Positions 976 to 32,800 of a stretch of DNA of 64,000 bases are shown one piece after another. The number at the start of each line of letters is the position of its first letter. The stretch's first letter is position 1. A program made the position numbers and the translations under genes. The notes below the pieces were generated by a model. It had not been told where the DNA came from. It made no database searches and saw nothing but the letters and a program-made list of their open reading frames with translations. Source of the stretch: a virus. The DNA lies in IMG/VR virus record IMGVR_UViG_3300009164_000047, positions 1-64,000 of that record. One strand, 5' to 3'.

Positions 976-3573
976 TTAAGCTGCCATGTATGTTTTTATG
1001 CTATGTTGCAACAAATTACTCTTATCCATACTAGTAATTAAATCATCAAATTGACTGTCAATCATACTCAATAATTCTAAATCTAAGTCATCTTTGTTAT
1101 CAGTATTTTGTTTTGATGTAAATGATTGCATAGTAGATTTGGGTTTAATGGTATTTCTAATCTCAGAAAATGTATTTTCTTTAAATTCTGGTGGCAGATT
1201 AATAGGGATAGTTCCATTGAATAATTCAATCAATGCTTCACGCCCGTGCATTTCAATCTCTTTACCTTGTATCATACTCTTACCAAACTTAGCTTTTTCA
1301 ATATGTACCGGGTCGTTTCTATATGGGCGTCTAAGTCCTGCTCTTTGTAGTATTCCTCTACCCTCCATCCAATCCAATTGATCCTTACTAACGTCAACCG
1401 CAGTAGAACTCATATGAGGAGTTTCTTTTACATCAGGATTTGCCGGAGTATTTACATTTCCGTGACCGGGAACATAGACCATTGGTTTACCAGGACCACC
1501 ACCTGCTTTAAGCCAACCCTGATACAATGATTTTTGTTCGTCATATGAACGAAAAGATGATGTTAGCATTAATTTTTTATTAGTTTGTTTAAAATATTCT
1601 TGAGCCAATAATGTTACATTCTTAGCTAATCCTGGATTTCTACTAGAAAATTGTGCCCAATTTTGTGCAGAACCTGATCCTGAACCAAATTCAATATACT
1701 TGGCTGCTTCACCTAAATCAGTTTTTAATATTCTGTCATTTAAATTTTGTTTATTTTGATCTTTTTCGTGGTCACTTAATGCTCTTTCACCGGCAGTAGT
1801 AGCAGTTGTTGAGGCAGTATATCCTTTATCAATTTTATCTTTTCTTTCTTGCAGTTTTGCTCTCTCTGCTTCTAATTGTTGAATAGAAGTTCCACTTTCT
1901 ATATTTTTGTCTCTCTCATCTTTTGCTATCGTTTCAGCTTCTCTTGCGGCGTTCATTGCTTTTAGTGCTTTATCTCTTTCTGCCTCAGGCGCACCTTTTT
2001 TCACAAGATTTTTATAGTTACTTTCTGCTTGTTTTCTACTTTCTTCTGCGGCTTTCAATTTATTGTTTGGTGCCTTAACTCTTTCAATTCTAGCATCCAT
2101 TTCAGCTAATTGCTTTGCGGCATCAGCCTTCATACCTTCAAGTTGTTTTGGGTTACCAATTAGTAACATCATTTTTTCAAAGCCTTCGGTATACTTACCA
2201 CCACCAATAATTCTACCAAAATCTGCAATAGCAAACGCAGTTTTCTTAACAGTTTCAACTAATAAATTAAATCCTGTTAATGCAAATGGCATCATTTTTT
2301 GAACTACAGTGTCTTTGACAAAACCCATTTCTCGTTCAGCATCAATCATTGTATTTTTTGCATCAATTATCTTATCAGGTTCATTTGCTTTTTCAGCAAT
2401 AAGTTTTTTAGCATCTTCTTCTGTTTTTATTCCGGCAAGTTTTTCTGTTTCCTGAAATACTCTGCCATTAATACCTGATGCATTTTGTAAATCTTTTGAA
2501 ACTGATAATACATCTTTATTTTTCTTTGCATAGTTTTGATATGCAACTCCTACTTCTCTAGCAGCCTCGGCTCCAGTCATTGTACCATCTTCAACTGCTT
2601 TTGCTATTTGAGCGGCTCTGTCACCCATAACCAGCATCATCTTTTTACCTTCTTCAGTAGTAGCAGTTCCATTTGCAATCCAGTCAGCCATACCCTTATT
2701 AAGTTCAGGACTAACTTTATCTAACAATGATAATACAACACCAAAATTATCTGCCGCTTTGCTATTACCACTTTTTATCAATTCTCTCATCTTAATTTGA
2801 TAAGAAGTATTTGATTTAAGTCCGGCTAATCTAGTTGCTGCCTGATCTCTACTTTCACCGGTTAGCACACTCAATGTAGTTAGTGTGTCTACATAAGATA
2901 AGGTACTTTTTCTTAATGCTCTATCATCTTCACCAATTTTCACTCCATACCCAGTTAAATATTTTACACCCTCTGCTTGATATTTCATCAGCATCTCTGG
3001 ATTTAGACCTTGTTTTAAATACTTTAATTGGTCTTCTCTGTTATCAAAAACTTTTGCTAATCTTTCGGCTGCTTTTCCTGTATTAGGACCTAAATACTTT
3101 AATGATTCTCCTACAGAGTTGAAAGACTCCATTAACTTACCAGCTTTATCTATAGGATATCCGGCTGACTTAGCCATATTGACTAGATCAGTAGTAGTCT
3201 TGGTAGCAGATATACCTACACCAGACACACTGTCCTGTAGCTTCATTACAGTGTCAACTTGCTTAAACACTCCGCCTACTAATGCATCTGCAATTGAAAG
3301 AAGCCCTTCAACCCCTGCAGCTACATTTCTTATTGTGCCGTTTTTTGATGAGCCAAAATGATTAGTTAAACTACTAAAAGACCTTTCTATACTAATATTC
3401 CATTTTGATACATCATCTCCGGCAGTTGTTATTGCTTTACTTACACCACCGGTTATACTAGACAAATCCCTAAAGGTAGCCTTACCAAAGTTCTTTAAAC
3501 GTTTTGCTAGTTTGGCAGTTTCAGCATTTAACTGTTGTGCATTACTACTAAATTCATTTATTTCATTTGACAT
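976..3573 (-). CDS. Tape-measure-like helical virion protein with C-terminal M15 (VanY/Ply500-like) zinc peptidase
   Basis: Long Ala/Lys-rich helical sequence. The C-terminal LTSSFRSYDEQ..H-x6-D (PHMSSTAVD)..DPVHIE fits the M15 zinc-ligand pattern. Paralogous to the upstream gene. Confidence 0.7.
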   Translation of the reverse strand: MSNEINEFSSNAQQLNAETAKLAKRLKNFGKATFRDLSSITGGVSKAITTAGDDVSKWNISIERSFSSLTNHFGSSKNGTIRNVAAGVEGLLSIADALVGGVFKQVDTVMKLQDSVSGVGISATKTTTDLVNMAKSAGYPIDKAGKLMESFNSVGESLKYLGPNTGKAAERLAKVFDNREDQLKYLKQGLNPEMLMKYQAEGVKYLTGYGVKIGEDDRALRKSTLSYVDTLTTLSVLTGESRDQAATRLAGLKSNTSYQIKMRELIKSGNSKAADNFGVVLSLLDKVSPELNKGMADWIANGTATTEEGKKMMLVMGDRAAQIAKAVEDGTMTGAEAAREVGVAYQNYAKKNKDVLSVSKDLQNASGINGRVFQETEKLAGIKTEEDAKKLIAEKANEPDKIIDAKNTMIDAEREMGFVKDTVVQKMMPFALTGFNLLVETVKKTAFAIADFGRIIGGGKYTEGFEKMMLLIGNPKQLEGMKADAAKQLAEMDARIERVKAPNNKLKAAEESRKQAESNYKNLVKKGAPEAERDKALKAMNAAREAETIAKDERDKNIESGTSIQQLEAERAKLQERKDKIDKGYTASTTATTAGERALSDHEKDQNKQNLNDRILKTDLGEAAKYIEFGSGSGSAQNWAQFSSRNPGLAKNVTLLAQEYFKQTNKKLMLTSSFRSYDEQKSLYQGWLKAGGGPGKPMVYVPGHGNVNTPANPDVKETPHMSSTAVDVSKDQLDWMEGRGILQRAGLRRPYRNDPVHIEKAKFGKSMIQGKEIEMHGREALIELFNGTIPINLPPEFKENTFSEIRNTIKPKSTMQSFTSKQNTDNKDDLDLELLSMIDSQFDDLITSMDKSNLLQHSIKTYMAA

Positions 3574-3575
3574 GA

Positions 3576-5894
3576 TTATCCTCTAGCATGATCTAAAAGT
3601 TCAGTTTGTAAATTGTTATTAAGTCTAATTCGTTCTAACAATGTATCTAATTTGTCAGTAACTGATTGTAGGACTCCGGTTGTTTTATTAGTTGATGTGG
3701 ATCCCCCAAACGTAGATAAAGATTGTTCGTCATCACTACCTTTAAGCATATTCATCATACTAGTCATCATATCAGTTAATTGTGAGGTGTCAGTTAATGG
3801 ATTATTTTTGTTACCCGTCAAATCTGCTGGCATAGAAGCCATACTCATATCGTTCTTAAACGATACCGGAATAGTATCTCCGCTAGGTAAGGGAACAACT
3901 GCAAAGTCTTTACCTTTTGGTAATTGTTTTCTATAGCCGGACATAGGTCCATCAAAAACCCCACCGGTTAGCTTGCTTGAATTATTGCTGGCTCCGTCAC
4001 CAGTAGTTCCACCAAATTTGAATTCTGGTACAGGGGCGTCTTGATTTACAGTAGACGTTGCACTCTTAGCTTGTTTGGGATTAAGTTTAGTGTTTCTTTT
4101 AGATGGTGCAGGTGCGGTTGTATTGTCCGCCTTGGGTGCAGGAAGTGCATCTCCGGATGTTTTGTAAACTGGGAGATTACGTTTTTTTGCTTCCTCTTGC
4201 CAAAATGCTGTTTGTTTTTTTAAATCAGCTACTTCTTGGGTTAAACTATCTAGACGAGGAGAGGTGCCGTCTTCATTGACTAGAGGAGCTTTAGATTCTT
4301 CGTCTAACAATTTTTGTTTCTTTTCAAGTTGGTCTAAAAATATATACTGTTTTTTCTCAACTTCTTCATCAGGTGTTACAGCCGTTATAAAATCATCAAA
4401 GTTTAAACCAAGTTGCTTTGCTAATGGACTTGCCATAAATCCAATTGCTAATTCTCTAATAGCAAGCATCGCTCCCTTAAATGCGTCTATTACCATTGGC
4501 AAGGTTAATTTTAAAAGTGTGTCCATCATCTTTGCTAATTGGTCAGTTGTATTTTTTACAGTATTTGAGAAATCAGTATAAGGATCTACTTTCTTCATTT
4601 TTTCATCAATAGCAGACTTAGTTGCGTCTAGTTGACCTTCGACCATTTTCTTAGCTGTATTTTCAAGAGTCTTTGTACCAATACCCATTGAATTTCTAAG
4701 TTCACCACTTGCCTTTAAGGCCGCGCCCATACTTATAAGAGTAGCTTCACCGCTTTCATTCAATTTATTAATAAATTCTTCTGGACTTAACTTACCGCTC
4801 TTAAACTCATTTGTCCAAGTAACAAATGCACCCTGTGTTCTGGTTGACAATGCTTGTGCTTCTGCACTGATAGCCGCACCATTTGCATATACATCTCTAA
4901 ATGCTTTCTGTGCAGATTCATCTACATTTGAACCAATAAGAGATGACATAGTTTGAACTAACTCTCGCTGTTTCATTCCTGCTTCACTATCACCCAATTG
5001 ACGTAGTGACATATTAAATGCAAAATCGTCTAAATCTTTTTGGCGTGATTGTTGTAGTGCTTCAGTAGTCTCGCCGGTAATAGCACTTAACACTGATAAG
5101 TTTTTTGTATAGTCAGTTGATTGTTTTACTAATGTGTCATCAACTTTTTTTCTACCAAAACCTAATGCACCTTGCTCTTTCATAAAAGAAGCTTGTGCAT
5201 TTAATAATTTTTCTTGACTAAAACCTAAATTAGCAAATTCGTTACGAGTCTTTTGTTGGTCTGCTAAACTATCAGTATTAAAACTTGCTAACTGTGTGAA
5301 AGTTTTAATACCCTCACCTGATGTTGCCCCTAACTTGAGTAAATCACCACCTAAACTTGTGATGGTTTTCACCATCATCTGAGATTGTCCATTGATGGTA
5401 TTGAACCCCGCATCGTTGAACATTCCCTCAAGTTCAGTTGAAGTGAATTGTGCCGCAGCACCTAAATCACCCAATTTATTGAAGTTACCAACTATCTTAT
5501 CTACTTGTGATAAATTAGCACCAACTAAAGCAGTAAACGCTTTGACTGCTAAACCAAGAACTACACCCAAAGGACCAAATGCCGCAGTTGCTAGACTTGA
5601 TAATCCCGATCCGGCAGCTTCTATTGCTCCGTTGTATTTTGATAAACTGTCGTCATTTTGAGTAAGTGCTTTAGAAAAACTTATTGCACTTTGTCCTAAT
5701 GACCTAAACCCAGCTTCGGCTTGCGCTATAGATGCTGATACAGCAGAGTCTCCACCTCTTATATCCTCAGCTGCCGTACCCATATTGGCAGCGGCACTTT
5801 GAGTAGCACTAGACAGAGACCTGGCACTTCTGTCAATCTCTTGTTTAGTATCTTCGTTCAGTCGTCTTGCTTCTTCTTCTGGATTTGTTGCCAT
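3576..5894 (-). CDS. Tape-measure-like virion protein (paralog of 976-3573)
   Basis: Helical protein sharing blocks with its neighbour (YTKNLSVLSAITGE vs YVDTLTTLSVLTGE; C-terminal IPV..LDxL..NxLQ). ATG at 5894 is preferred over TTG at 5909. Adjacent to the gp26-like chaperone. Confidence 0.6.
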   Translation of the reverse strand: MATNPEEEARRLNEDTKQEIDRSARSLSSATQSAAANMGTAAEDIRGGDSAVSASIAQAEAGFRSLGQSAISFSKALTQNDDSLSKYNGAIEAAGSGLSSLATAAFGPLGVVLGLAVKAFTALVGANLSQVDKIVGNFNKLGDLGAAAQFTSTELEGMFNDAGFNTINGQSQMMVKTITSLGGDLLKLGATSGEGIKTFTQLASFNTDSLADQQKTRNEFANLGFSQEKLLNAQASFMKEQGALGFGRKKVDDTLVKQSTDYTKNLSVLSAITGETTEALQQSRQKDLDDFAFNMSLRQLGDSEAGMKQRELVQTMSSLIGSNVDESAQKAFRDVYANGAAISAEAQALSTRTQGAFVTWTNEFKSGKLSPEEFINKLNESGEATLISMGAALKASGELRNSMGIGTKTLENTAKKMVEGQLDATKSAIDEKMKKVDPYTDFSNTVKNTTDQLAKMMDTLLKLTLPMVIDAFKGAMLAIRELAIGFMASPLAKQLGLNFDDFITAVTPDEEVEKKQYIFLDQLEKKQKLLDEESKAPLVNEDGTSPRLDSLTQEVADLKKQTAFWQEEAKKRNLPVYKTSGDALPAPKADNTTAPAPSKRNTKLNPKQAKSATSTVNQDAPVPEFKFGGTTGDGASNNSSKLTGGVFDGPMSGYRKQLPKGKDFAVVPLPSGDTIPVSFKNDMSMASMPADLTGNKNNPLTDTSQLTDMMTSMMNMLKGSDDEQSLSTFGGSTSTNKTTGVLQSVTDKLDTLLERIRLNNNLQTELLDHARG

Positions 5895-5907
5895 GTGTTT
5901 TTTGACC

Positions 5908-5932
5908 AATAAATATATGTAATTGTATTTAG
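5908..5932. promoter_or_regulatory. Face-to-face pair of gp55-type late promoter cores (TAAATA-N10-TATTTA)
   Basis: AATAAATA on + (5908-5915) and CTAAATA on - (5926-5932) in the gap between divergent structural genes. Resembles the T4 late consensus TATAAATA. Confidence 0.6.
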
Positions 5933-5962
5933 TGTATAAAAACTACCATTTTAGGAGAAATA

Positions 5963-6793
5963 ATGAGTTTAGAAAATAACCCTTTAAAGCAGTATTTCCG
6001 TCGCCCGGGAATTTATTTAAAATTACCCAGCGGTGGATTAGGATATGAACCGGGAGTAATTGAATTTCCAGAGACCGGAGACTTGCCTGTGTATCCAATG
6101 ACTGCGATTGACGAAATCACTAGCAAAACTCCAGATGCGTTGTATAACGGAACTGCTGTAGTAGATATCATTACTAGTTGCATTCCATCAATTAAACAAC
6201 CATGGAAAGTAACCTCAGTTGATTTAGATGCTATCTTAGTAGCAATTAAAATTGCAACAAATGGTTCTGAAATGGAGATTGAAACTACTTGCAATAAATG
6301 TGAGGAAGAATCAAAGTACGGGGTAAACTTAAGTATGGTTTTGAATAATTTCAGACCCGGTGATTATGAAAACGGACTAGTAATAGACCAATTGAAAATA
6401 AAGTTTCGCCCACTAACTTACAAAATATTAGCTGGTAGTAGTGTAAAACAATTTGAAATACAAAAAGGTATCATTTACATTAACAGCTTACCTGACGGCT
6501 TTGAAAAAGACGAAAAGTCAAATGAATTGTTAAAAACAATAACAGACTCAACAGTTGATGTATTAGTAGATACTATTGATTGTGTGATTACTCCGGAATC
6601 AATAGTAAACGATAGAGCATTTATTATGGAATTCATTATGAACACTGATAAGAAAACTTTTGAAGCTATCAGAGACCATAGTGTAAAATTGCGTGAAAGT
6701 ACACAAACTCAACCATTACACATAACATGTACTCATTGCAATAATGAGTATGACCAAGCATTCACATTGAATGTAAGCGATTTTTTCGCTTAA
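5963..6793 (+). CDS. Baseplate hub assembly protein, T4 gp26-like
   Basis: NPLKQYFRRP..LPS, YPMTAIDE, DLDAILVAIKIAT, two CxxC pairs (CNKC, CTHC), C-terminal DFF. Strong SD AGGAG. Confidence 0.8.
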   Translation: MSLENNPLKQYFRRPGIYLKLPSGGLGYEPGVIEFPETGDLPVYPMTAIDEITSKTPDALYNGTAVVDIITSCIPSIKQPWKVTSVDLDAILVAIKIATNGSEMEIETTCNKCEEESKYGVNLSMVLNNFRPGDYENGLVIDQLKIKFRPLTYKILAGSSVKQFEIQKGIIYINSLPDGFEKDEKSNELLKTITDSTVDVLVDTIDCVITPESIVNDRAFIMEFIMNTDKKTFEAIRDHSVKLRESTQTQPLHITCTHCNNEYDQAFTLNVSDFFA

Positions 6794-6829
6794 GGCTTCT
6801 ATACCTTGACCCCGAAGGTATCGGGAAGC
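6781..6829 (+). other. Candidate programmed -1 ribosomal frameshift site (T TTT TTC + 7-nt spacer + hairpin)
   Basis: Slippery heptamer 6781-6787 in the correct register. Hairpin GCTTCTATACCTT/AAGGTAT(CG)GGAAGC at 6795-6829. The -1 frame is stop-free into ORF 6832-7017. Confidence 0.75.
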
Positions 6830-6831
6830 TG

Positions 6832-7017
6832 ATGGATGGTATGGAACGGGATATAAAGGCTATTAAGAAGAACTCTGTACGTATAGCCTGGTATATGCGT
6901 GGAGCCTTAACCTATGAGGATGTACTCAATCTCAGTGCTGATGAACTAAAATCGGTTAATGAAATTATTGAAGAAAACTTAGAAACTACTAAGAAAACAC
7001 AGATGCCGTTCTTCTAA
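6832..7017 (+). CDS. gp51-like hub assembly chaperone segment, probably the frameshifted C-terminus of the gp26-like protein
   Basis: WYMRGALTYEDVLNLS..E motif typical of the small ORF after gp26. The frame is open from at least 6781. Confidence 0.7.
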   Translation: MDGMERDIKAIKKNSVRIAWYMRGALTYEDVLNLSADELKSVNEIIEENLETTKKTQMPFF

Positions 7018-7536
7018 TCCATGGTATATCATTTGTTATTATTACGGTAATCACCCTATTCATTAATTGAGAGATGAACGCAGTTCATCTAAGTACTCGC
7101 TATCGCTCGTCCTTAATTGTTTACGGTTATCTAGTTTACTAATTGTAATTTGATAATTTGTATTAAGGACTATATTGCCGCTTTGAAGCCATGGTAGTGC
7201 TATTCAGCACTACCAATGGTAAAGGTATGTTTGCCATGCCCGTCATCCATAGTCATCTCTTCCCCGGATAATCAACTCTTTTCTGTTATTATTCGCCACC
7301 GGTTGCTCTGTAGGGTTTTTGGGACTGTAGTTGAAGCTATTAGGTTCTGCCTAATTCTTCAGCAACGCATGTTACATATTCGCAAGATAAAGTAAAATAT
7401 GTACTCATTGAAGGTTCGCTTTGACGAGAGCCTTCTCGGTGTTCCGTACCATTACTGATACGCATACTCCAGAATCCGACGGCACAGCACAATCTGTACA
7501 ATCTCAAGGAGGACTTGCAACCAAGCCTACGATTTT
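7018..7536 (-). ncRNA. Candidate large structured non-coding element (RNA and/or origin), family unknown
   Basis: About 520 nt with no ORF of 60 aa or more in a gene-dense genome, with at least 7 hairpins. G-U pairs and a GUAA tetraloop favour the minus strand. Confidence 0.5.
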
Positions 7537-8103
7537 TTAAATGTCAATAGTTAGATTTGACTTTGTGTCTGTGTTTATATTTGACTTTGTGTCTGCTGAA
7601 TATGTTTGTACTAATTTGGTATTGTGTTTAAAGAATGAATCGAATTCCATGATGTACCAGTCACTAAACTTTTCACTTCCGTAGAAGAAGAAATTGTCAG
7701 TGATCCATGTTAGCTTGCATTGCACAGCAACATAACGACCCTTACGATTAAATTTCATAAAAAGAATATTCAAATCGTCTGGATCGGCTACATCAAGTAG
7801 TTGTTCTAACCAAGAATCCAATATTTTGTGTTCACCTGATAATAATAAGTGAAAGGGAAAATCAGCATAAAACTTACATTCTACGTTCATCTTCGGAAAG
7901 CTTTGTCCGGGCACAATATCACCCTTAAAGCTACGAATCTGACCTTCATGTAGAAACTGAGTTCTGGACTGATTCTTGCCACCAACATAAGCTCCGGAAC
8001 CAGGAGCTCGAATAAAGCTTTCGCTATATTTTTCGCTTAGATATTTTGCGATTTCTCGCTCAAATCCTGATCCTTTGTTCTTGCTCGGTGATGACATAGA
8101 CAT
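7537..8103 (-). CDS. Holliday junction resolvase (PD-(D/E)XK, Hjc-like)
   Basis: SKNKGSGFEREIA...GDI...VECK motifs; next to gp46/47. Confidence 0.8.
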   Translation of the reverse strand: MSMSSPSKNKGSGFEREIAKYLSEKYSESFIRAPGSGAYVGGKNQSRTQFLHEGQIRSFKGDIVPGQSFPKMNVECKFYADFPFHLLLSGEHKILDSWLEQLLDVADPDDLNILFMKFNRKGRYVAVQCKLTWITDNFFFYGSEKFSDWYIMEFDSFFKHNTKLVQTYSADTKSNINTDTKSNLTIDI

Positions 8104-8133
8104 ATACTTATCTCTTATCAGTGACTTTCAAAT

Positions 8134-10206
8134 TTATTCTACGTCTACCGCTGTGCTATATGTAGTAAAGCCGTTTTCTTTGACTACTTTTAAGACACTG
8201 GGCACACGCCCTGCTAGTTCTTCACGGTGAGAAACAAGCCAAATAGACTTATGTCGTCTACGTGACATGTCCTTAAGAATAGCAATAGCGTTTTCAACAC
8301 CCATTGTGTCTAGCCCACTGTCAATCAATTCATCAATGAATAGTGTATTGATAGGTGAATACAAGTTCTCCCAAACATCACGGAATGCAAAACTCAAGCC
8401 TAGAATTAGTCGATTACGCTCACCGCGACTTAAGTTATCAAAGTCAAGTTCACGGCCCAATTCAGTAATTTCAACCGTTAAATCATTCTGAAATACTACT
8501 TGATGCGGCAATCCAATCTTATCTAAGTAATGTGTTAAACGACTATTCAAGTACGACAAGTTTTGGTCAATAATTTTCTTACGAACAAAACTGTCTTTGC
8601 TAGTTAGAATATCTAATAGAAACTTCTGATGTTCCATAGTCTTTGTTAGTTTATTGATAGCATCAAAGTCAATTGCTTGCAACGCATTTGATTCCATTTC
8701 AACTACTTGTTCAGCATATGGATCAGTCTCTGCTGCCTTACTCTCAATATTCTGCAACAACCCAGATACTTTACTACGATGTTCAATTGCTTGAGTTTCA
8801 GTATCATAATGAGTAACTGGCATGGGACCTACTTCAACTGATGTAAGTTCTGTTAGTTGTTCAGCATATGGATCAACTTCTTTTTCTTTTTCAAGTATCT
8901 TTGTGCGAATGTTTTCTGCATCACTACCATGACGGATTGCTTCAGCTTCTGTTTTATAATGTGTCTTTGGCTTGTCACCTAACACAACGTCTTTGTCGTT
9001 TAATTCTTTTATTTGATTAACTAAAGAGGCAACATGATTTTGTGCATCTGCAAGCATCTTTTCTTTATCTTCTAAGACTTTTGTATGTTGCTCATCATGG
9101 AAATCTTGCCCACAGGCATAGCATTGATGTGCTAATAATTTTATAATTTCAACGTTTAGCTTATCTATTAGTTTTTTTTCTTTGTCAATGTCTTTGTTTA
9201 GCCGAGCAATATCTTTATCTCGGTCTTCAATTTCTTTTGACTTAATACTATATTCAGCTAATGATCTATGTGCTAGAATTTCTTGAACAATATCAATCCT
9301 AGATAACTTCTCACCGCTAGCCAGTAAATCATTGATATCCTTGTCTTGTTTTTGTTTCCACGCAGTTTGGCGAGCCAACAATGAATCACGTGTATCTTTT
9401 TGTTTTTTCTTGACATTATAAATGGCTAAGTCTTTGTGTGCCAATAACTCTTTATCAATGTCAATCTGTCCTAATTCATCATATTGTGCAACTAGGTAAG
9501 CTAAGTCACTATCATGTTTCTTTTGCCAAAGTCCTTGTCTTCGGATCAAACTTTCAATCTGTTCTTTAATACGCTTGTTGGCTTCTTCAATAGCTTTGAC
9601 TTTATATTCTTCGCTTTGTATTCCGTCTTTAGTTTCTTTTAACAATACTTTGATTGTTTCTGCTTTTTCGGATAATAAAGTAATACCCAACAACTGTTCA
9701 ATGATTTCACGTTGTTCGTTTGATTTTAATGCTAGGAACGGCTCACTATATGTATTCAATGCAACAATATGACGGAACATACTACTAGACATACATAGTA
9801 CTTTTTCAATTGCTACTTGTGTTTCTTTGTTCTCGCCCTGTGCATCATCCGTACCTTTTTGTAAATCATTGTTTACATAAAATCGTAATAGATTTGGCTT
9901 ACGACCACGCTCAATCTTATAGTCAATGCCACCAACACTGAATTCAAGTGTAACTAACATACCCTTTCCATTTGTACGATTAACTAAATTATCTTTTCTG
10001 ATTGAGTTAATGGGCACACCGAATAATGCATAGCTTAGACCCTGAATAAGACTAGTCTTACCTGTACCATTACGAGCACCGTCACCACCCAAGTCTAAGT
10101 TCTCACCTAGAATAAGTGTTAAGTCTTGGCGGTTAAAGTCAACTGCTTGTGTGACTTGTCCGATTGATAGAAAGTTCCGTAATGTAATGTTCTTTAATAA
10201 TATCAT
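8134..10206 (-). CDS. Recombination ATPase gp46 / SbcC / Rad50
   Basis: Walker A NGTGKT, central CYAC zinc hook, signature LSRGE, Walker B FIDELID, H-loop VSH. Confidence 0.95.
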   Translation of the reverse strand: MILLKNITLRNFLSIGQVTQAVDFNRQDLTLILGENLDLGGDGARNGTGKTSLIQGLSYALFGVPINSIRKDNLVNRTNGKGMLVTLEFSVGGIDYKIERGRKPNLLRFYVNNDLQKGTDDAQGENKETQVAIEKVLCMSSSMFRHIVALNTYSEPFLALKSNEQREIIEQLLGITLLSEKAETIKVLLKETKDGIQSEEYKVKAIEEANKRIKEQIESLIRRQGLWQKKHDSDLAYLVAQYDELGQIDIDKELLAHKDLAIYNVKKKQKDTRDSLLARQTAWKQKQDKDINDLLASGEKLSRIDIVQEILAHRSLAEYSIKSKEIEDRDKDIARLNKDIDKEKKLIDKLNVEIIKLLAHQCYACGQDFHDEQHTKVLEDKEKMLADAQNHVASLVNQIKELNDKDVVLGDKPKTHYKTEAEAIRHGSDAENIRTKILEKEKEVDPYAEQLTELTSVEVGPMPVTHYDTETQAIEHRSKVSGLLQNIESKAAETDPYAEQVVEMESNALQAIDFDAINKLTKTMEHQKFLLDILTSKDSFVRKKIIDQNLSYLNSRLTHYLDKIGLPHQVVFQNDLTVEITELGRELDFDNLSRGERNRLILGLSFAFRDVWENLYSPINTLFIDELIDSGLDTMGVENAIAILKDMSRRRHKSIWLVSHREELAGRVPSVLKVVKENGFTTYSTAVDVE

Positions 10207-11484: not shown

Positions 11485-12390
11485 TTATTCTTCGTAAACA
11501 GTAGAACTAGTTCCAAGACCCTGGCGTGACCAGCTTGGATTAAGCCCATTCATCTCTAAAATATCATCACGTATATTTTGATTTCGTTTTTCGGAATTTA
11601 ATACACGACAAAAACTATTAGTAATAGCCGCAGTGTAATAAGCGAATGGGTTAGCAGATTTGGCTTCATTGAAACGTAAGCCAACATATGTAAGTTGTAG
11701 AATAGCCGAGTTACGCATCTCATCGTTGTATGTGTACCCGCGCCAATTAAATTTCATTGCATATTTTTCACATAGCATGATGTACATACGGGCAAGTTTA
11801 TTAGTAATGTTTCCTTGATCCTTACCAAACTCACCATTTTCTAAATCACCTTTCCAATGACTCTTTCCGATAACTTTAAAAGTATTTGTACTATCTAAAC
11901 GATAGTGCTGAAAGGGCGGGAAGTTGACTTTGACATGTACCATGTCGTCAACTTCTTTAGCGGTAGTAGGATCTTCTAAATCAGCAAAAATTTCGTCCGC
12001 ATCACCCTCAAATTCAAAGATATCTTTAGCAGTTTTCTTTTTATCTACCTTGCGAGGTTGTTTGGGTGCGACCGGAATATGATCCCAAGTCATTACACGA
12101 AATACTAAGTCTGTTGTAGGAATAGACATTGGGTCAGTCGTACCCTTAGTAAGCCCTTGTTCAATGTCTAGCCTCTCAGCCCTAGTTTCACGTGCTAACT
12201 GAATGTTCTCTGGTTTGTATGCGTATTCTAGGCTTTGAGGAATACTAGACTGGGGCATATCCACAATAAAATCATATCTATGATCCGCTTCTGCTAGAAA
12301 TGTGCAATATGAGTTTTTGCTACTGTGAATCTCTTTTAAAATGTCCTTGTTATTTAAATAATTTACGGGTTTTTTTGTTATGATTGTCAT
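11485..12390 (-). CDS. Late-transcription sigma factor, T4 gp55-like
   Basis: NYLNNKDIL N-terminus; NWRGYTYNDEM...RFNEAKSANPFAYYT. The order 55-47-46 matches T4. ATG 12390 is preferred because the longer TTG start lies inside the promoter. Confidence 0.9.
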   Translation of the reverse strand: MTIITKKPVNYLNNKDILKEIHSSKNSYCTFLAEADHRYDFIVDMPQSSIPQSLEYAYKPENIQLARETRAERLDIEQGLTKGTTDPMSIPTTDLVFRVMTWDHIPVAPKQPRKVDKKKTAKDIFEFEGDADEIFADLEDPTTAKEVDDMVHVKVNFPPFQHYRLDSTNTFKVIGKSHWKGDLENGEFGKDQGNITNKLARMYIMLCEKYAMKFNWRGYTYNDEMRNSAILQLTYVGLRFNEAKSANPFAYYTAAITNSFCRVLNSEKRNQNIRDDILEMNGLNPSWSRQGLGTSSTVYEE

Positions 12391-12415
12391 AAGTGGTTGA
12401 AGTTTCCTTGATAGT

Positions 12416-12444
12416 ATTATATCAGGTTTGTAGTCAAAAAGCAA
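12416..12444 (-). promoter_or_regulatory. Sigma70-type promoter for gp55 (TTGCTT-17-TATAAT)
   Basis: Same -35/-10 hexamers and spacing as the promoter at 11441-11469. Confidence 0.65.
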
Positions 12445-23808: not shown

Positions 23809-26800
23809 ATGGCAAATAGAGTTAGAACAATTGATTTTCTTCCTGAGATTTTTAGAACAGAAACTAATAATCAATTCTTGGGTGCTACCCTAGACCAACT
23901 AGTTACACCTCCTAAATTAGATAAAATTGAAGGATATATTGGTCGTAAATTCGAATATGGATTAACTGCTAGTGATAGTTATATTGTTGAACCTAGTAAA
24001 ATTAGACAAGACTATCAGTTTGAACCAGGTGTAATATTTACTAAAACTAATACTAGTACTGCGGTTGATTTTTTAACATACCCCGGATTAGTTGACGCAC
24101 TTGTATCTGAAAATGGATCAGTAATTAATCATTCTAAACTATTTGCAAATCAATTCTATTCATGGGATAGTTTTGTAGATTTAGATAAACTTGTTAACTT
24201 CAGTCAATACTATTGGTTGCCTGATGGTCCTGATGTTGTGGATGTAAAAACTAGTTTATTGTATAACAAATTAGATTATGTTGTTACTAATCAGTCAATA
24301 GACTATTCTATTTCTGCCAATGACATTAGTTTGGGTAAGAATCCAATAATAACATTACTACGTGGTGGCACCTACACATTTAATGTATCACAACCAAATA
24401 AGTTTTATATTCAAACTAGTCCTGGAACTTCAGGTAAAAATCCATCACGTGTTAACTTAACTAGCAGAGAGATTTATGGATTGGATAATAACGGCATTGA
24501 TGCTGGTTTTATGACGTTTACTGTCCCTTATGCAACTGACCAAGATAATATCAAATATCCCGGTAATAATCCAGTTGACATTGTGTGTACTTTACCTTTC
24601 GAAAAAGTACACGGTATGCCATTGAGTAAACTTAAAGAAATTGATGGAATTAATTCATTGCGTAACAGAACATTAATGTTTTATGGATTTAAACCGGGAA
24701 CAACTGCTAAACTTACTAACTTCTATGACAACGTAGCATTTGATGATGTTACCTATGACGGCGGTGATACTACAGTAATTACAAATAATTTCTATAAAAT
24801 TAATTATGTTAGTGAAGACGACGGTGACCCCGTAATTATATTGACTGAACAGAAGGTTATTCCAACTAATCAAAAAATTACTGCAATATTTGGTGAAACT
24901 TTTATTAGCAGAGACTTTGTAAAAAATCAATTAGGTGAAATACTTCAATTAGCACAAATCACGGCTGATTTAGATACACTATATTATCAGGACGCAGTTG
25001 ATCCATTAAAGACCGGACTTATAAAGTTAGTAGAAGATAATGCATCACATAAAATCAATGTTGAAGCTGAAATTCTAGGGAAGAAAACTTATAAAAGTCC
25101 GTTTGGTGTTGTGTTTACAAACGGAATGAAGATTAATTTTGTGGGCTCAATATTTCCGGAATCATATAAAGATAAAAAATACTATGTAGAAGGTGTTGGA
25201 ACTGGAATAGAATTAGTACCTGAAACTGATGTATTGGTTCCAGAAACCTTCAGTCAGATTGTTTATAAATCATATGATAATGAAGGATTTGATACATCAA
25301 CATTCAGTGAACGATTGAATGTCCCTGTAGTTAAAGATTACATTACTATTAGTAGAAATGCAAAAAATAGAAATGCATGGAGTCGTAGTAATCGTTGGTT
25401 TCATATTAATGTATTGAAAGCTACTGCTTTATATTCAAGTGGCAAGATATCTAACGCCGCATTGAACAACGCAGATAACCGTGCCAAAAGACCAATCATT
25501 GAATTTTATCCAAATTTAAAATTGTTTAATAGTGGGACTATGCATAAAACATTTGTTGATTTTATTGATACTACAACCACTAATGCTAATACTCAAGTAT
25601 CAGGACAAACATCTTACATACCCGATGGTAGCTTACCGCTATTTGATGGTGCAACAATTGTTTTTACTGCTGATAATGATGTTGAAGTGCGAAATAAAAT
25701 ATTTACTGTAAGATTTCGATCAATTACTGGATCTGGTTCACCGATAATTACATTAACTAATGCAAATAAAGATGTAATTGTTGCAAATGAACAAGTAGTT
25801 TCAAAACGTGGAACTAATAACGTTGGCAAAACATATTATTTTAACGGGTCAAATTGGTCGTACTCACAAGCAAAAACATTAATAAATCAACCTCCTATAT
25901 TCGATGTGTTTGATATTAATGGTGTAAGTTTTAGCAATCAATCATATTATCAAGGTAGTGATTTTAAGGGAACTAAATTATTTTCATATGCTATTGGTAC
26001 CGGTACTGATGATATTATATTGGGGTTTCCAATAAAGTATAGTTCAGTAGCTAATATTGGCGATATTAATTTTAATATTGATTTTAACAGTGATTCGTTT
26101 AATTTTATTAAAAATTTTGTTTCTACTACATATAATATTACCGATGGATATGTTCATAACTATACTTCACTTACTGCCTACAATAGAAAAATAGGTTGGG
26201 AAACTGCGATTGGTGAAAGTTTTCAGTATCAAGCATTTGAATTTGAATATACCATTGGTAAATCTTTTTCAACATTAAAATTTAATATATTGCCGGTAAC
26301 TTCAAGTCCTTGGCCAACAGTCAAAGTTTATTTTGATAGTACGGAACTCACTTCATCACAATTTACAGTTAAAACATCAACTACGTTAAATCAAACAACT
26401 GTTACTTTATTATTTCCACCAGTAGTTAATACAATGATGCAAGTGTTGATATACAGTAATGATCCACTTGATTCAAAAGCATATTTTACTATACCAAGTA
26501 ACTTATCTAATAACCCGTTCAATGTTGATATCCCTGAATTAAGTTTAGGTGATTTGCGTGGACATTACCAAAGCATTTACAATAACAGTAGAAAAATTAC
26601 CGGTGATGTGTTTGGGGCAAATAACTTTAGAGATGTTGGAAATTTAATTCCGTATTCTACTAAAATAATCAGAAACAGTGCGCCAATGGTAAAATTGGCA
26701 GCATTCATGCGCCATCCAGAATACAATTTAATAGATTCATTGTCATTTAACGCACAAGAATATGTTAAGTTTAAACAATTGATGTTATCAACTGTTGACC

Positions 26801-29800
26801 AATCAGAATATTTCCCAACAATGTCCGGTGGACAGATGTTAGATGATGTATTGCAACAGATTGCTTCATATAAACAAGAAAGTGATAGTTTCTTTTGGTC
26901 AGATATGTTACCTGCGAGAGCACCATATATCTCTAAAATTTATACATTCAATGCATTTATTGATACAAGCTTCTTCCCATTAAGCAAGATATATGATTTT
27001 AAAAATGCAAACTATAATTCAATTTTAGTTTATAGTAAGAATACTGTCGGCGGGATTGATAGATACACTCAATTAATTAAAGATTTAGATTATACTATTA
27101 GCAGTACTCAGCCTAAATTACAAATTACTAAGGATTTAGTGGCAGGGGATACAATCATAGTCAACGAATATAATACTACGTATGGTAGTTATGTTCCAAA
27201 TACTCCTAGCAAATTAGGATTATATCCTGCAAGTCGCCCAAGTATTGTATTAGACAACAGTTATCTAATTCCTACGTATTTTATTAAAGGACATGACGGA
27301 TCATTAACTAAATTGTTTGGTGCATATAATAATGGTTACTTAGAAGATTTTAAAGATAAAGTTTTATTAGAGTTTGAAACTCGTATCTATAATAACATCA
27401 AAGTAAGTGCTCCTATTCCAATCAAAGAAGATGAAATTATTCCTGGTTACTTTAGAAGCACCGGCAACTCAATAGCAGAAGTTCAAAATATATATTCTGT
27501 TAATTTCTTAGACTGGGTTGGTAAGAATAACATTGACTTTGCAAATAATTTTTATTCTTCAAGTGAAAAATTTACTTGGAATTACAAAAATGCTACAGAT
27601 AAAACTAATAAAGTTATAACTCAAGGTTTCTGGAGAGGAATATATTTGTGGTATTATGATACTACCACCCCTCATTCAACGCCATGGGAGATGTTGGGAC
27701 TAACAGATAAACCTTCTTGGTGGGATGCTCGTTATGGTGAAGCACCATATACTAGCGATAATAAAGTATTGTGGACAGACATTGAGGCAGGAAGAATTAA
27801 TGGAACAGTTAATTCACGTAGAGCAAGACCCGGATTGTCTACAATATTGCCGGTTGATTCATATGGTAATTTAAAGAATCCATTTAATACAATGGTTCGT
27901 GATTATAGTAAGGCAGTATTTAACACTGCATGGGATGTGGGTGATGTAGGTCCTGCAGAATATAGTTATAGAAGAAGTAGTAACTGGCCATTTGATTTAA
28001 TGAAGATAATTGCATTATTAAAACCTGCAAAGTTCTTCTCATTGGCACAGGATATAGATTTATATACATATAGTTCAGAATTTAACCAATTCTTGTTGGA
28101 TGGATTCCTACATGGGAATAAAATTCCACTATTGTATGGTAATGGGACAGCACAGCATGGTTATATGAATTGGATTGTTGATTATGTTCAACGAACCGGA
28201 CACATAGGACATAATAAAGTTACATCATTATTAAACAATTTAGATGTAAGATTAATTTATAGAATTGCTGGTTTTACCGACAAAGAATATTTAAATTTTT
28301 ACTTAGAAAAAACAAGCACCAATTCAAATAATGTGTCATTGTTGTTACCTAGTGAAAGTTACAATGTAATGTTGTATCAAAATCAACCTGAATTTACTAT
28401 TCGCTATAGTAGTATAATTATACAAAAAACTTCTGCTAATGGATATTCAGTTACCGGTAATAGTCAGACTCGTTCATATTTTATGACATATACATCCGAC
28501 CCGGATGGTACGTACAAAGTAATTGAAGTAAATGGTAAAAAGGTTAATATACCTAATAATTACAGCACTGTAATTAAATATGTTCCTTATGGTACGGTGT
28601 TTACTACAGCGCAATCACTGGGTGAATTCATTACAAACTACGGTAGATATCTAACCGACCAAGGAATACAATTTGATAATCAAGAAAATGAATTCATATT
28701 AAACTGGGAACAAATGGTTGCTGAGGCACTATATTGGGTAGGCGCAAATTGGGAAGTTGGAAGTTTGATTAGTATTAATCCAGTTGCAAATTGTTTAGTA
28801 ATTAATAAAGATAGTTTAATTGTCCAGCCACTTACCGCACAGGATAAGAATTTTATTTTGAATCAAAACTTATATGCAATTCATTCAAGCGATTTAGCAA
28901 TATTAAGAGATGACACTAGATTTGAAGTTAGACCATTAAATGATGGTGATACTATTTCATATTTTACTGCCAGTTTAAATTCACTAGAACATGGTATTGT
29001 GTTTGATAACGTGTCATTGTTCAATGATACAATATTCAACAAACTTACCGGATTACGTCAGAATAGATTGTTCTTGCGAGGACAAAAAACTGCTGAATGG
29101 AATGGTACATTAAATGCTCAAGGATTCTTATTAAATCAGGATAATATTGAAAATTGGTCAGCGAATGTAAAATACGTTAAGGGTTCTATTGTAACACATC
29201 AGAACAAATATTGGATGGCTAATAAAACGGTGTTGGCATCACTTACATTCAATTCAAATGATTGGATTGAAACAGATTACGAAAAGATTCAAAAAGGGTT
29301 ATTACCCAATGCAAGTACACGTGCATCAGAAAGTGCATTGTACTATGATATTAAAAATGCTAACTTAAAGAATGATGGAGATTTGCTAGGGTTCTCATTG
29401 ATTGGATATAGACCTAGAGATTACTTATCTGCTAGTGATTTATCAGATATTTCACAAGTTAATTTATATAAAAGTTTTCTTAGTGAAAAGGGAACTAAGA
29501 ATGCAGTTAATATTGCTCAAAACATTACATTAGATGTTGGACAAATCAAATATGATGTATATGAAAACTGGGCTATTAAGACTGCTGAATACGGTGGAAT
29601 AACTAACCATAATTTTATTGAATTCAAACTTAACAAAACTCAATTAACTGGTAATCCCAATATCATAGGTATAGTAAATGATAAACCTGAATCAGGACTA
29701 TTACAGACTATTCCTTTATATGGACTAACTAATTTTGGATCAGTAATTACAGACATTAATATTCTACCTAGAAAACCCCTTGATTATTTTGAGAAGTTAC

Positions 29801-32800
29801 CAAGCGCAGGATATGTAAACTTTAATGACATTAAGATGTTTAGCTTATCATTTGACAGATTGAGTGTAGGTACGCTGACTGCAAATGACATATTTCAGGG
29901 TGATTATATTTGGATTGCAGATGACTATGGTAGTTGGAAAGTAACTACACCAATTCCAATGGGTACTATTAATAAACATGTTAATGCTATAAGTGTAAAT
30001 AATAATTTTAATGGTACTGCTACATTTGAATTTGATTTCCCGCACGGGTTAGTAAAAGACGATACATTTATGATTGTTAACTATGATTCCTCTATTGACG
30101 GGTTTTATAGAGTTAATACTGTAGGTGGTCTAACAACCGTGACAGTAGATTTATCATTGCCGTCAGACACAACCTCAATCAATAGTTTGGGTATTGCGTC
30201 TAAGTTTCAAACTCAACGCATAACAACCACAAAAGAATTATCTAATTTATTATTAATGAATGACGGGGCTAGTCAACAAAAAGTATGGGTTGACACTGAC
30301 CAAAATGGTAAATGGGCAGTATTGCAAAAAGATTTAAGCTACAAATATACTAATTTATTAAAACGATCAGGTACACAGAATTTTGGTAACTCTGTTATAT
30401 TTGATAAAGACTTAGGAATATATATTGGAGATCCTGGAGCAAGAACAGTTTACAGATATGCTTATGCTAAGGCAGGTACGTATGGTGTAACTTCAATTAA
30501 TGCAAATACATATGAATATAAAGAATCAGCATATGTAAATACAGCTGGATTTGGTACTGCAATGGCTAAATCAGATGATGTTATTATAATTACTTCACCT
30601 GGTGCGACAAACAGTTATGTCTATGTTGGTGTATTACATCCAAGTACGCATAAATCGTTTATTGTTCAACAAGTAATTACTATTGCCGGTAAACGTGTAG
30701 GTGATGCGGTAGCATTATCTGGTGATAAGAAATGGTTATATTTAAGTTCTTTAACAGAAGCAAAAGTTTATGTGTATAGACTTGATGATAATGTTATTCG
30801 TGTATCTGCTGGATTTGTACTCTCATCTGCAATCGCAATCTATGCTACTGGTTTTATAGTTAACGGAGACCAGTCTGATGGGTTAGGTCATGGAGATAAA
30901 GTTTCATTCTCTAATGCTATCAAAGCAGAATCATATGTAATTGAAACTAGTGAATACAATTTAGGTACAAATAAGACTACTTTTTACATTGAAGGTAATT
31001 TTAAATCACTAGTAGCTACTGGAACTACAGTCTATAAAGCAACATATAATTATTCAAGTGTAACAACATTAAATGTGTCAGATGTTATTCCTGCTTGGTC
31101 AGGCTCTACACCCTACAGTGTAGGTGCAGTGGTATTTCATAGTGGTAACACTTATATAGCAGTAGGCGGCAGCACTAACCAAAATCCAAGCACCCAGACA
31201 GTATACTGGAAAGTATCTAACACTGGCTTTGGTACTACTTTATCTACAAATTTTGATGGAAGTAAAGTTTTTATCAGTGCACCTACATTAGATTTTACAC
31301 CCACACTATTCAATATGGGTGCAGTATATGTTTATAACAGAATAGTGCAAAATATTACATACGTGCGTGACTCTATTGATTGGACAGATTTAACTACTAA
31401 GCTAGCGTGGTCTCCTGCAAATGGTATTTCAGTCTCACATAATGGTCAGTTACTAGTTCCTGCAATAGATTACACTACCACAGCTAACACAGTTACGTTT
31501 AAATATCCGTTTAGAGTTGGTGCAGGTGATGTAGTTAATATTAGTTCAGGCGACTTTGTTTTCACACAAACTCTTACACCATACGACTATAGAACAAGTG
31601 TTAGATCCAGTATTGCATTTGGTACAGGATTAGACACAAATATATTTGGCAATGATGTTCTTGTTGGTGCACCGTTCGATATATCAGTTGATAATTATGA
31701 AGGTGCAGTCTATAGATATACACATGAAGGTAAAAAGTACGGCACAATTACTGGAGTAAATGCAGTAACTTTGGTTTCTACTGCAACTATTTTAATCAAC
31801 GGAACAGTTGTAGTATTACCTAGTACAGGTTTAAATAATATTGTTACTGCTATTAACCAAGCAGGAATATTAAACGTGATAGCAACTGCCATTGATGAAA
31901 CTAAACTACAGATTAGTTTACGTGATCCTAAATTAGGTAGATTAAATGACAAATTAACAATCACTGTGTTTAACAAATCTGTACTAGATAGTTTAGGAAT
32001 CAAAGAGTACACCCAAACACAAACTATTAGAGAAGTTCATAATACTACAAATCCAACTCAATTTGGATATTCTATAAAGTTTAATGAATATAACTCAGTG
32101 GCGATTAGTGCGCCGGTGGCAAATAGATTTGCCGCAACAACATTTGATTTTATTGACGATAGTAAATCAAATAATGACACGTATTTTGATAATAACTTCA
32201 CTAGATTTATTGATTCATTTGCAAATGCAGGTGCAGTATTTGTTTATGACTATATTGCAGAATATAATGAAAGTCTAAGTAACTTAGGTAGTTATGTATT
32301 TGCTCAATCATGTAATGATTTAATTACTAACATTGGACCTAGTGCATTCTATGGTAGACAATTAGCATTTAGTGAATACACATTGGTTGTTGGTATACCT
32401 GATAATTATTCAGGAGATGGATTTAATGGTAGGGTAGTTGCTTATAAAAATCTTACTAACAAACCAAATTGGAACATATTTAGAAAATCAAATGATGTTG
32501 TTGATGTTGATAGATTATCCGGAGTTCAAATATATGACAACGACACCAATGAACGTAGTCAATCATTAGATTATATTGATCCATTGCAAGGCAAGTTGTT
32601 GGGTGTGGTCATGGAAAATCTAGACTATGTTGATAGCATTGACCCTGCTGGTTACAATACAGACGTTAGAAATCATAACTTAGTTTGGTCTAGTGAATAT
32701 ATAGGTAAACTATGGTTTGACACATCCTCAACTCGTTTTGTAAACTATCACCAAGAAGATACTGTATATAATAGTAGATATTGGGGCACTGTTTTCCCTG

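Follow-up and report, generated by a model that had tools for sequence, protein, structure and literature searches.

A probable programmed −1 frameshift yielding gp26-like and gp51-like baseplate hub proteins from one gene in T4-related jumbo phages

Introduction

Tail assembly chaperone genes are reportedly subject to a conserved −1 frameshift, as Xu, Hendrix and Duda are said to have described in 2004, and for phage P2 Christie et al. are said to have found in 2002 that the tail genes E and E+E' shift on T TTT TTG. In phage lambda, a −1 slip on a heptamer of the type X XXY YYZ, located a few codons before the stop codon of a tail-morphogenesis gene, leads to a major short product (gpG) and a minor one with a C-terminal extension (gpGT), which share their N-terminal part and neither of which is present in the virion. 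The gpG-like protein has about 140 amino acids (aa). Frameshift-made pairs of short and long tail chaperones have been reviewed as a hallmark conserved in long-tailed phages 'except T4' (Atkins et al., 2016, PMC5009743), and because of this exception a counterpart in the gp26/gp51 family of T4 would be of interest. Here we describe a gene of this family at positions 5963-7017 of a viral DNA stretch of 64,000 nucleotides (nt), called the window in the following, which on comparison with related sequences very probably employs a conserved programmed −1 frameshift, so that this single gene would yield two products, one like gp26 and one like gp51.

In T4, gp26 and gp51 are considered to be 'hub assembly chaperones', their roles having been unclear for decades, and gp51 is needed for assembly yet is, like the two lambda products, absent from the particle (Leiman et al., 2010, PMC3004832).

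Slippery heptamer and −1 frame at the end of the hub gene

The window covers positions 1-64,000 of the IMG/VR fragment IMGVR_UViG_3300009164_000047, a record of 97.7 kb judged to be about 28% complete. Its nearest cultured relatives belong to the Rak2/121Q/PA5oct/Atu_ph07 group of jumbo myoviruses (28-34% identity), and no match was obtained when the locus was compared by blastn with phage records. The hub gene and the region following it contain these elements:

5963..6793, + strand: 0-frame gene for the short form of 276 aa, a predicted baseplate-hub assembly protein of the gp26/gp51 family (assigned from PF12322, phrog_150 and AlphaFold2)
6781..6787, + strand: slippery heptamer T TTT TTC, X XXY YYZ in the 0-frame register (sequence and conservation)
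6788..6793, + strand: spacer made up of the last 0-frame codon GCT and the stop codon TAA, lying within the −1 codons Arg-Leu-Arg (sequence)
6794..6830, + strand: putative stimulatory RNA hairpin of 14 base pairs (bp) with a 2-nt bulge, 6 nt past the heptamer (fold and covariation)
6787..7017, + strand: −1 frame extension of 76 codons plus TAA (translation and homologue profile)

The 0-frame gene ends with AGC GAT TTT TTC GCT TAA, in which the stop codon occupies 6791-6793, and the encoded protein terminates in SDFFA; the initial annotation of this DNA had reported the ending GAT TTT TTC GCT TAA with the heptamer in register, and this was found to be correct. All-pyrimidine heptamers with a UUY codon in the A-site belong to the shift-prone class in E. 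coli (PMC4066793). Starting with the C at 6787, the −1 frame gives RLRLLYLDPEGIGKLMDGM (in the longer reading RLRLLYLDPEGIGKLMDG) and stays open to the TAA at 7015-7017. A slip on the heptamer therefore joins residues 1-275 to 76 codons and leads to a long form of 351 aa, in agreement with the fusion of about 351 aa with the open reading frame (ORF) 6832-7017 that had been proposed. Within the extension, the first ATG, GTG or TTG is the ATG at 6832 (codon 16), from which the ORF 6832-7017 would yield an independent product of 61 aa. A search with Rfam over 6600-7600 detected no family.

Conservation of the slip site among relatives

Two sets of related loci were compared with the window. The first set comprised 80 IMG/VR loci, picked only by similarity of their 0-frame proteins (37-73% identity), together with four isolates. 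The second set, also of 80 loci, was found with an alignment as query, a query with a single protein having given no related loci. The initial annotation had named an alignment of homologous loci as the check on heptamer and open −1 frame, and both are borne out: in the first set, isolates counted, a heptamer in register with a 76-codon −1 ORF behind it is found at every locus with a complete 3' end (82/82), the −1 frame showing coding constraint from the slip site onward, and the heptamer is likewise present in all non-fused loci of the second set (74/74). The latter loci make up the frameshift type in the second set (74/80), the other loci have the long form in frame (6/80), and none has neither arrangement (0/80).

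The slip site is present in all seven cultured relatives examined, as T TTT TTC in Atu_ph07, PA5oct, 121Q, Phosso, XaC1 and Munch and as T TTT TTT in RsoM2USA. In Atu_ph07, PA5oct, 121Q and Phosso the gene reads NNT TTT TTC near its end, with one to three more codons before the stop, and the homologous −1 stretch has 71-77 codons. XaC1 and Munch show the same arrangement with the stop 11 codons later, and RsoM2USA (L174:1150-1420) has a run of nine T in GTT TTT TTT TCC and a homologous −1 ORF. The long form is unannotated in all seven genomes: the extension appears as a separate small ORF in the GenBank records of 121Q, Phosso, Atu_ph07, XaC1 and Munch and is uncalled in PA5oct and RsoM2USA. 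The frameshift proposed here would correct the annotation of all of them.

All distinct junctions read NNT TTT TTC G (126/126), while codon usage in the same genes predicts a fraction of 0.127 (13%). The residue preceding the two phenylalanines (FF) varies (D, S, N, T, H, G) while its third base stays T, and the invariant third bases at the junction indicate a synonymous constraint on the heptamer. Beyond the slip site, conservation of the −1 peptide sets in with its first codon, in most sequences ahead of any start codon, and shows the pattern R-x-R/K-L-L, with R1 and L5 invariant and L4 nearly so in a profile of 65 homologues, and the codons that specify this start differ by clade (CGC TTA AGG CTT CTA versus CGN AGC CGC CTC CTG).

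These data bear on an explanation without any frameshift, according to which ORF 6832-7017 would be an independent small gene, translated from its own start or by termination-reinitiation, with the hairpin regulating this start. It could account for the sequence GGGAAG, situated 4-9 nt upstream of the ATG at 6832 inside the 3' arm of the hairpin, and for the small ORFs annotated separately in the five cultured relatives just named. However, the earliest possible start codon wanders between codons 1 and 36 across loci, often lying at codons 11-36, PA5oct has none at all, and the 15 codons ahead of the ATG in the window are conserved as protein with codons differing by clade. Also, the synonymous sites of the heptamer are invariant, the extension was left unannotated in PA5oct and RsoM2USA, and natural in-frame fusions, described below, exist. 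Wandering or missing starts, conservation upstream of them and in-frame fusions together contradict a separate small gene, which we consider to be very unlikely.

In-frame and tandem-gene equivalents

When a profile of the extension was searched against 1.84 billion representative proteins, 493 matches were obtained, mostly small called ORFs. In 20 natural proteins of 319-351 aa, a PF12322-type domain and the extension are encoded in one frame, and their junction is non-slippery and reads ..F-R-x-K-L/I-L/I... All of the in-frame loci of the second set (6/6) hold two family genes in tandem, one short and one long; loci of the frameshift type have a single family gene within 8 kb on either side. 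One locus close to the clade of the window, L094 (IMGVR_UViG_3300043399_000272, 7929-9869), shows such a tandem duplication, as was likewise noted for L095. The first copy in L094 is a hard-wired long form with the junction GAA TAT TTT CGG GTT AGA (E-Y-F-R-V-R), and the second copy of the tandem pair is a short form that lacks the terminal FF and ends with ..DINVNSI. The L094 long form displays 42% identity to the short form of the window and 51% to its extension, and its structure was predicted with a local distance difference test score (pLDDT) of 95.9 and a template-modelling score (pTM) of 0.92; in this model the extension consists of four helices that pack against the body. Judged from its sequence, the L094 long form is a frameshift product made permanent, and some lineages appear to have hard-wired both forms as tandem genes, as T4 did. 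In complete genomes, one PF12322 gene was counted in each of Atu_ph07, PA5oct, 121Q and Phosso and two in T4. No family was assigned to the extension in Pfam, PHROGs or NCBIfam, and its profile retrieved nothing below an E of 0.07 from the PDB sequences.

RNA structure downstream of the slip site

In the window, the region 6788-6835 folds into a stem of two 7-bp halves, bulged by 2 nt on the 3' side and closed by a 7-nt loop (−16.1 kcal/mol). A bulged hairpin of 13 bp at 6795-6829 had been reported in the initial annotation; it is the same stem as that at 6794-6830 minus the outer G-U pair, and depending on whether this pair is counted the spacer is 6 or 7 nt long. Covariation, which had been suggested as a check on the hairpin, was evaluated in the 48 sequences nearest to the window by counting pairs, with slid-partner and shuffle controls. 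Hairpin columns pair in 80.5% of the cells; sliding the partner by 1-3 columns lowers this to 38-53%. Compensatory changes were found, such as U-A/C-G at one pair and, at the pair next to it, A-U/C-G/G-C, and cells with a double change number 41 versus 18.3 ± 4.5 in shuffles, none of which was as high (0/500). The Leu-Leu codons of the 5' arm are always CTT CTN in the nearest relatives. Folding of 127 junctions in comparison with control windows from the same genes gave the following mean values of minimum free energy (MFE) and z:

60 nt after the heptamer: mean MFE −14.6 kcal/mol, mean z −1.94
control window 1: mean MFE −8.3 kcal/mol, mean z −0.55
control window 2: mean MFE −11.1 kcal/mol, mean z −0.44

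The long form might instead arise by slippage of RNA polymerase on the T run, one U being lost or two being gained in the mRNA. Polymerase slippage is known in bacteria at runs of nine T (reviewed in PMC5009743). Six T are short for efficient slippage. The slip site is indeed a homopolymer run, and the nine T of RsoM2USA have a length that would permit transcriptional slippage. However, none of the 126 distinct junctions departs from a T6 run with C behind it, always in one codon register, and such a register matters to the ribosome and not to the polymerase; also, six T are short and the covarying hairpin is found at a 6-nt spacing typical of ribosomal stimulators. Fixed-register T6C and a hairpin at ribosomal spacing make transcriptional slippage unlikely, and we would grant it only a slight chance. 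Although homopolymer runs are error-prone in some sequencing chemistries, an assembly error caused by an indel in the run, or a decaying pseudogene, can be dismissed with near certainty: more than 120 distinct sequences, drawn from independent metagenomes, and 7 finished isolate genomes are all broken at the identical base, a number that excludes sequencing error, and both frames are under purifying selection.

Relation of the two forms to T4 gp26 and gp51

The 276-aa short form matches the Pfam family PF12322 (T4_baseplate) with an E of 4.2e-16 and 59.7 bits over profile positions 35-219 of 219, the curated cut-off of the family being 24.5 bits, and it is also contained in phrog_150 'baseplate hub'. 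T4 gp26 matches PF12322 at 8.8e-64 and T4 gp51 at 3.9e-52 over residues 1-201, both T4 proteins thus being members of PF12322 and paralogues of each other. In comparison with the cultured relatives, C110, C113, C256, C259, F274 and F275 of the short form are invariant, corresponding to two CxxC pairs and the terminal FF. C113, C256, C259, F274 and F275 are also invariant in an alignment with T4 gp26, C110 being invariant among the jumbo relatives. T4 gene 26 retains the FF, encoded there by TTC TTT.

AlphaFold2 predicts the short form with a pLDDT of 89 and a pTM of 0.83 as an alpha/beta domain with four cysteines coming from two distant CxxC pairs. Foldseek detected nothing in the PDB at E <= 0.001 with this model, and the best match with VIA-align (Z 7.4) was to a generic helical hairpin only; no claim of a new fold is made for the predicted structure. 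Among the predicted structures in BFVD, the gp26/gp51 fold was encountered at E < 1e-4 across many other myovirus groups, including Campylobacter phage CP220, Bacillus phages SP-15 and BCD7, Erwinia phages phiEaH2 and Special G, Ralstonia phage RSF1, Pseudomonas phage PaBG, a 'cysteine-rich protein' of the Ackermannviridae and some phiKZ-type phages, and some of the matching proteins are 450-690 aa long.

When the T4 proteins were aligned with frameshift products made in silico, gp26 stopped just past the FF like the short form and gp51 ran on like the long form. The tail of gp51 (..F-K-L-L-x-N-P-D-E-I.. and ..M-x-P-x-E-R..) is collinear with the −1 extension. Comparison by hhalign of the extension profile with 86 gp51 tails gave a collinear match with a probability of 74% and a P of 2.8e-5, and a broader extension profile reached a score of 25.2 against the gp51 tails, versus 10.4 ± 2.2 with a maximum of 18.9 in 100 column permutations. 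These alignments argue with moderate strength for homology between the extension and the gp51 tail. Homologues of gp51 carry the precomputed Pfam entry PF28602, which is Pfam's own model of the tail.

The T4 proteins and the protein of the window thus belong to the same PF12322 family and have the two CxxC pairs at the same positions, and in both phages the genes lie apart from the main baseplate operon and divergent from their neighbours. Whereas T4 has two paralogous, divergently transcribed genes and no slip site, the window has one gene and a predicted frameshift for both forms. Sizes differ as well, T4 gp26 and gp51 having 208 and 249 aa and the two forms of the window 276 and 351 aa, and the extension is about 17 residues longer than the tail of T4 gp51. 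The description of the locus as a gp26-like and a gp51-like ORF was essentially right, except that the small downstream ORF matches only the C-terminal tail of gp51; according to these alignments the equivalent of gp51 is the whole 351-aa trans-frame product and not the downstream ORF.

Proposed mechanism and points weighing against it

From the comparison with relatives it is evident that heptamer, constraint on the −1 frame, covariation and in-frame equivalents strongly support the programmed −1 frameshift first suggested for the window, and that the frameshift signal in the compared sequences is far beyond chance. We propose that most ribosomes would end at the TAA at 6791-6793 and produce the 276-aa short form, while a minority would pause with two tRNA-Phe on T TTT TTC, the hairpin 6 nt downstream resisting unwinding. 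The paused ribosomes would slip back one base and read 76 codons, resulting in the 351-aa long form, whose added part would be a four-helix C-terminal module. T4 gp26 would have its counterpart in the short form and T4 gp51 in the long form, and the frameshift would set the ratio of the two forms from one mRNA; the absence of gp51 from the T4 particle fits a frameshift product of low abundance. We infer the ribosomal nature of the slippage and its efficiency, and chaperone roles of both forms are suggested by analogy with T4 genetics.

Several observations weigh against this proposal. Taken on its own, the hairpin of the window is suggestive, with a z of only −2.05 and 8 of 200 shuffles folding as well, and RNAalifold returned no consensus structure for the alignment of 48 sequences. 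The stimulatory structure also differs between clades: distant clades (4-codon and 3-codon classes, e.g. L063, L068, L070) do not have the local hairpin and show longer-range complementary pairs at a similar start distance, such as GCCTCCT and AGGAGGC, separated by about 50 nt, or GCCTAATT and AATTAGGC, separated by about 35 nt. As these clades swap the local hairpin for longer-range stems near the same start, the stimulator would seem to be real but evolving. With respect to gp51, the probability of the tail match was only 58-74%, and comparison by hhalign of the extension profile with the single sequence of T4 gp51 gave a probability of 2.5% in the wrong region. An ATG overlaps the 0-frame stop codon in about one quarter of the sequences, and some free small peptide might be formed there by translational coupling. 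Finally, as the record is only about 28% complete, a second family gene might be located elsewhere in the genome from which the window derives.

A full-text literature search, with most subscription journals outside its scope, turned up no description of frameshifting in genes of the gp26 type. The omics paper on PA5oct does not mention a frameshift, and the PRFect paper mentions neither baseplate nor jumbo phages. If the proposed frameshift operates, the T4-related jumbo phages of this large and abundant clade would make gp26-like and gp51-like forms by recoding one gene, and gp26 and gp51 would be predicted to act as a stoichiometric pair, one of them abundant and the other rare.

Comparison with G/GT and other tail chaperone frameshifts

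As in lambda G/GT, the −1 slip proposed for the window takes place on an X XXY YYZ heptamer that precedes the stop codon of a tail-morphogenesis gene by a few codons, and the predicted outcome is again a short product in the majority and a C-terminally extended one in the minority, both with the same N-terminal part. Unlike gpG, its N-terminal part is a 275-aa domain of a putative zinc type, and a family scan of the gene for TAC, gpG or gpT in Pfam, PHROGs and NCBIfam yielded PF12322 only, for the short form. The extension, as modelled for the L094-type protein, is packed onto the N-terminal domain and does not hang free. Also, the hub gene is not situated between tube and tape-measure genes and is divergent from ORFs for proteins of 777 and 865 aa. 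P2 and the window have in common a contractile tail and a near-identical T-rich heptamer near the end of a tail chaperone gene; P2 differs in the protein family and in the gene order, its pair lying directly upstream of the tape-measure gene.

The designation of the locus as a G/GT equivalent, made in the initial annotation, is therefore apt in so far as short and long products would arise by a −1 shift. It does not extend to sequence, in which no family relation was found, or to the gene order, which is non-canonical, and the comparisons of the predicted short form with the PDB brought up no relation in fold. By analogy, gp26 and gp51 might be the T4-type counterparts of the G/GT chaperones, T4 having replaced recoding by gene duplication, but this we put forward only tentatively and with rather more doubt than confidence. 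If they were, the tape measure or the hub core would be bound by the zinc-type domain that both forms share, while the step that follows in assembly would be nucleated by the extension present in the rare long form. On this view the tail chaperone frameshift would be common to all long-tailed phages, T4 being the textbook exception that gave it up for duplicated genes.

Gene neighbourhood

Upstream of the hub gene, the following features were located:

5935..5942, + strand: TATAAAAA, putative late promoter 20 nt upstream of the ATG of the hub gene, followed by an AGGAG ribosome-binding site (sequence only)
3576..5909, − strand: 777-aa protein, divergent neighbour whose position is conserved in relatives, possible tape-measure candidate (ESM Atlas leads)
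976-3573, − strand: 865-aa protein, upstream neighbour, with a weak VanY/endolysin-like region at about residues 637-748

The hub gene had been described as adjacent to two tape-measure-like genes, which was not substantiated. Weak language-model leads point to the 777-aa and 865-aa proteins as possible tape measures: for the 777-aa protein, ESM Atlas features gave PhageMin_Tail and TMP_3 clusters at a score of 0.94 with just 104-121 shared features. The protein has no match in Pfam, PHROGs or NCBIfam, and similarity of its family to T4 gp29 was not found by hhalign (probability 0.2%). Nor did Pfam, PHROGs or NCBIfam assign a tape-measure family to the 865-aa protein. The two proteins are paralogous in their N-terminal parts, the 777-aa profile matching residues 32-308 of the 865-aa protein (hhalign 96.5%, E 8e-10). 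In cultured relatives a single such large gene lies between the hub gene and the portal gene, and across loci its product has 610-999 aa. In the PA5oct record, gp335, the counterpart of the 777-aa protein, is marked as detected by virion mass spectrometry, whereas the hub gene gp336 is not so marked.

The sequence TATAAAAA differs by one mismatch from TATAAATA, which we take to be the T4 late-promoter consensus, and may serve as the late promoter of the hub gene. The window has only three exact copies of TATAAATA, where 13 would be expected by chance, and a gene for a gp55-type late sigma factor is present at 11485-12444. Other genes of the neighbourhood encode a recombination nuclease of the gp46/gp47 type, a portal protein and baseplate proteins similar to gp5, gp25 and gp6. 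Downstream of the extension stop, about 520 nt of non-coding DNA without any ORF (7018-7536) separate the hub gene from recombination genes on the opposite strand, the nearest being a PDDEXK/RusA-like gene. Following the gene for the gp6-like baseplate wedge protein, a single ORF of 5371 aa extends over 23809-39924 (+).

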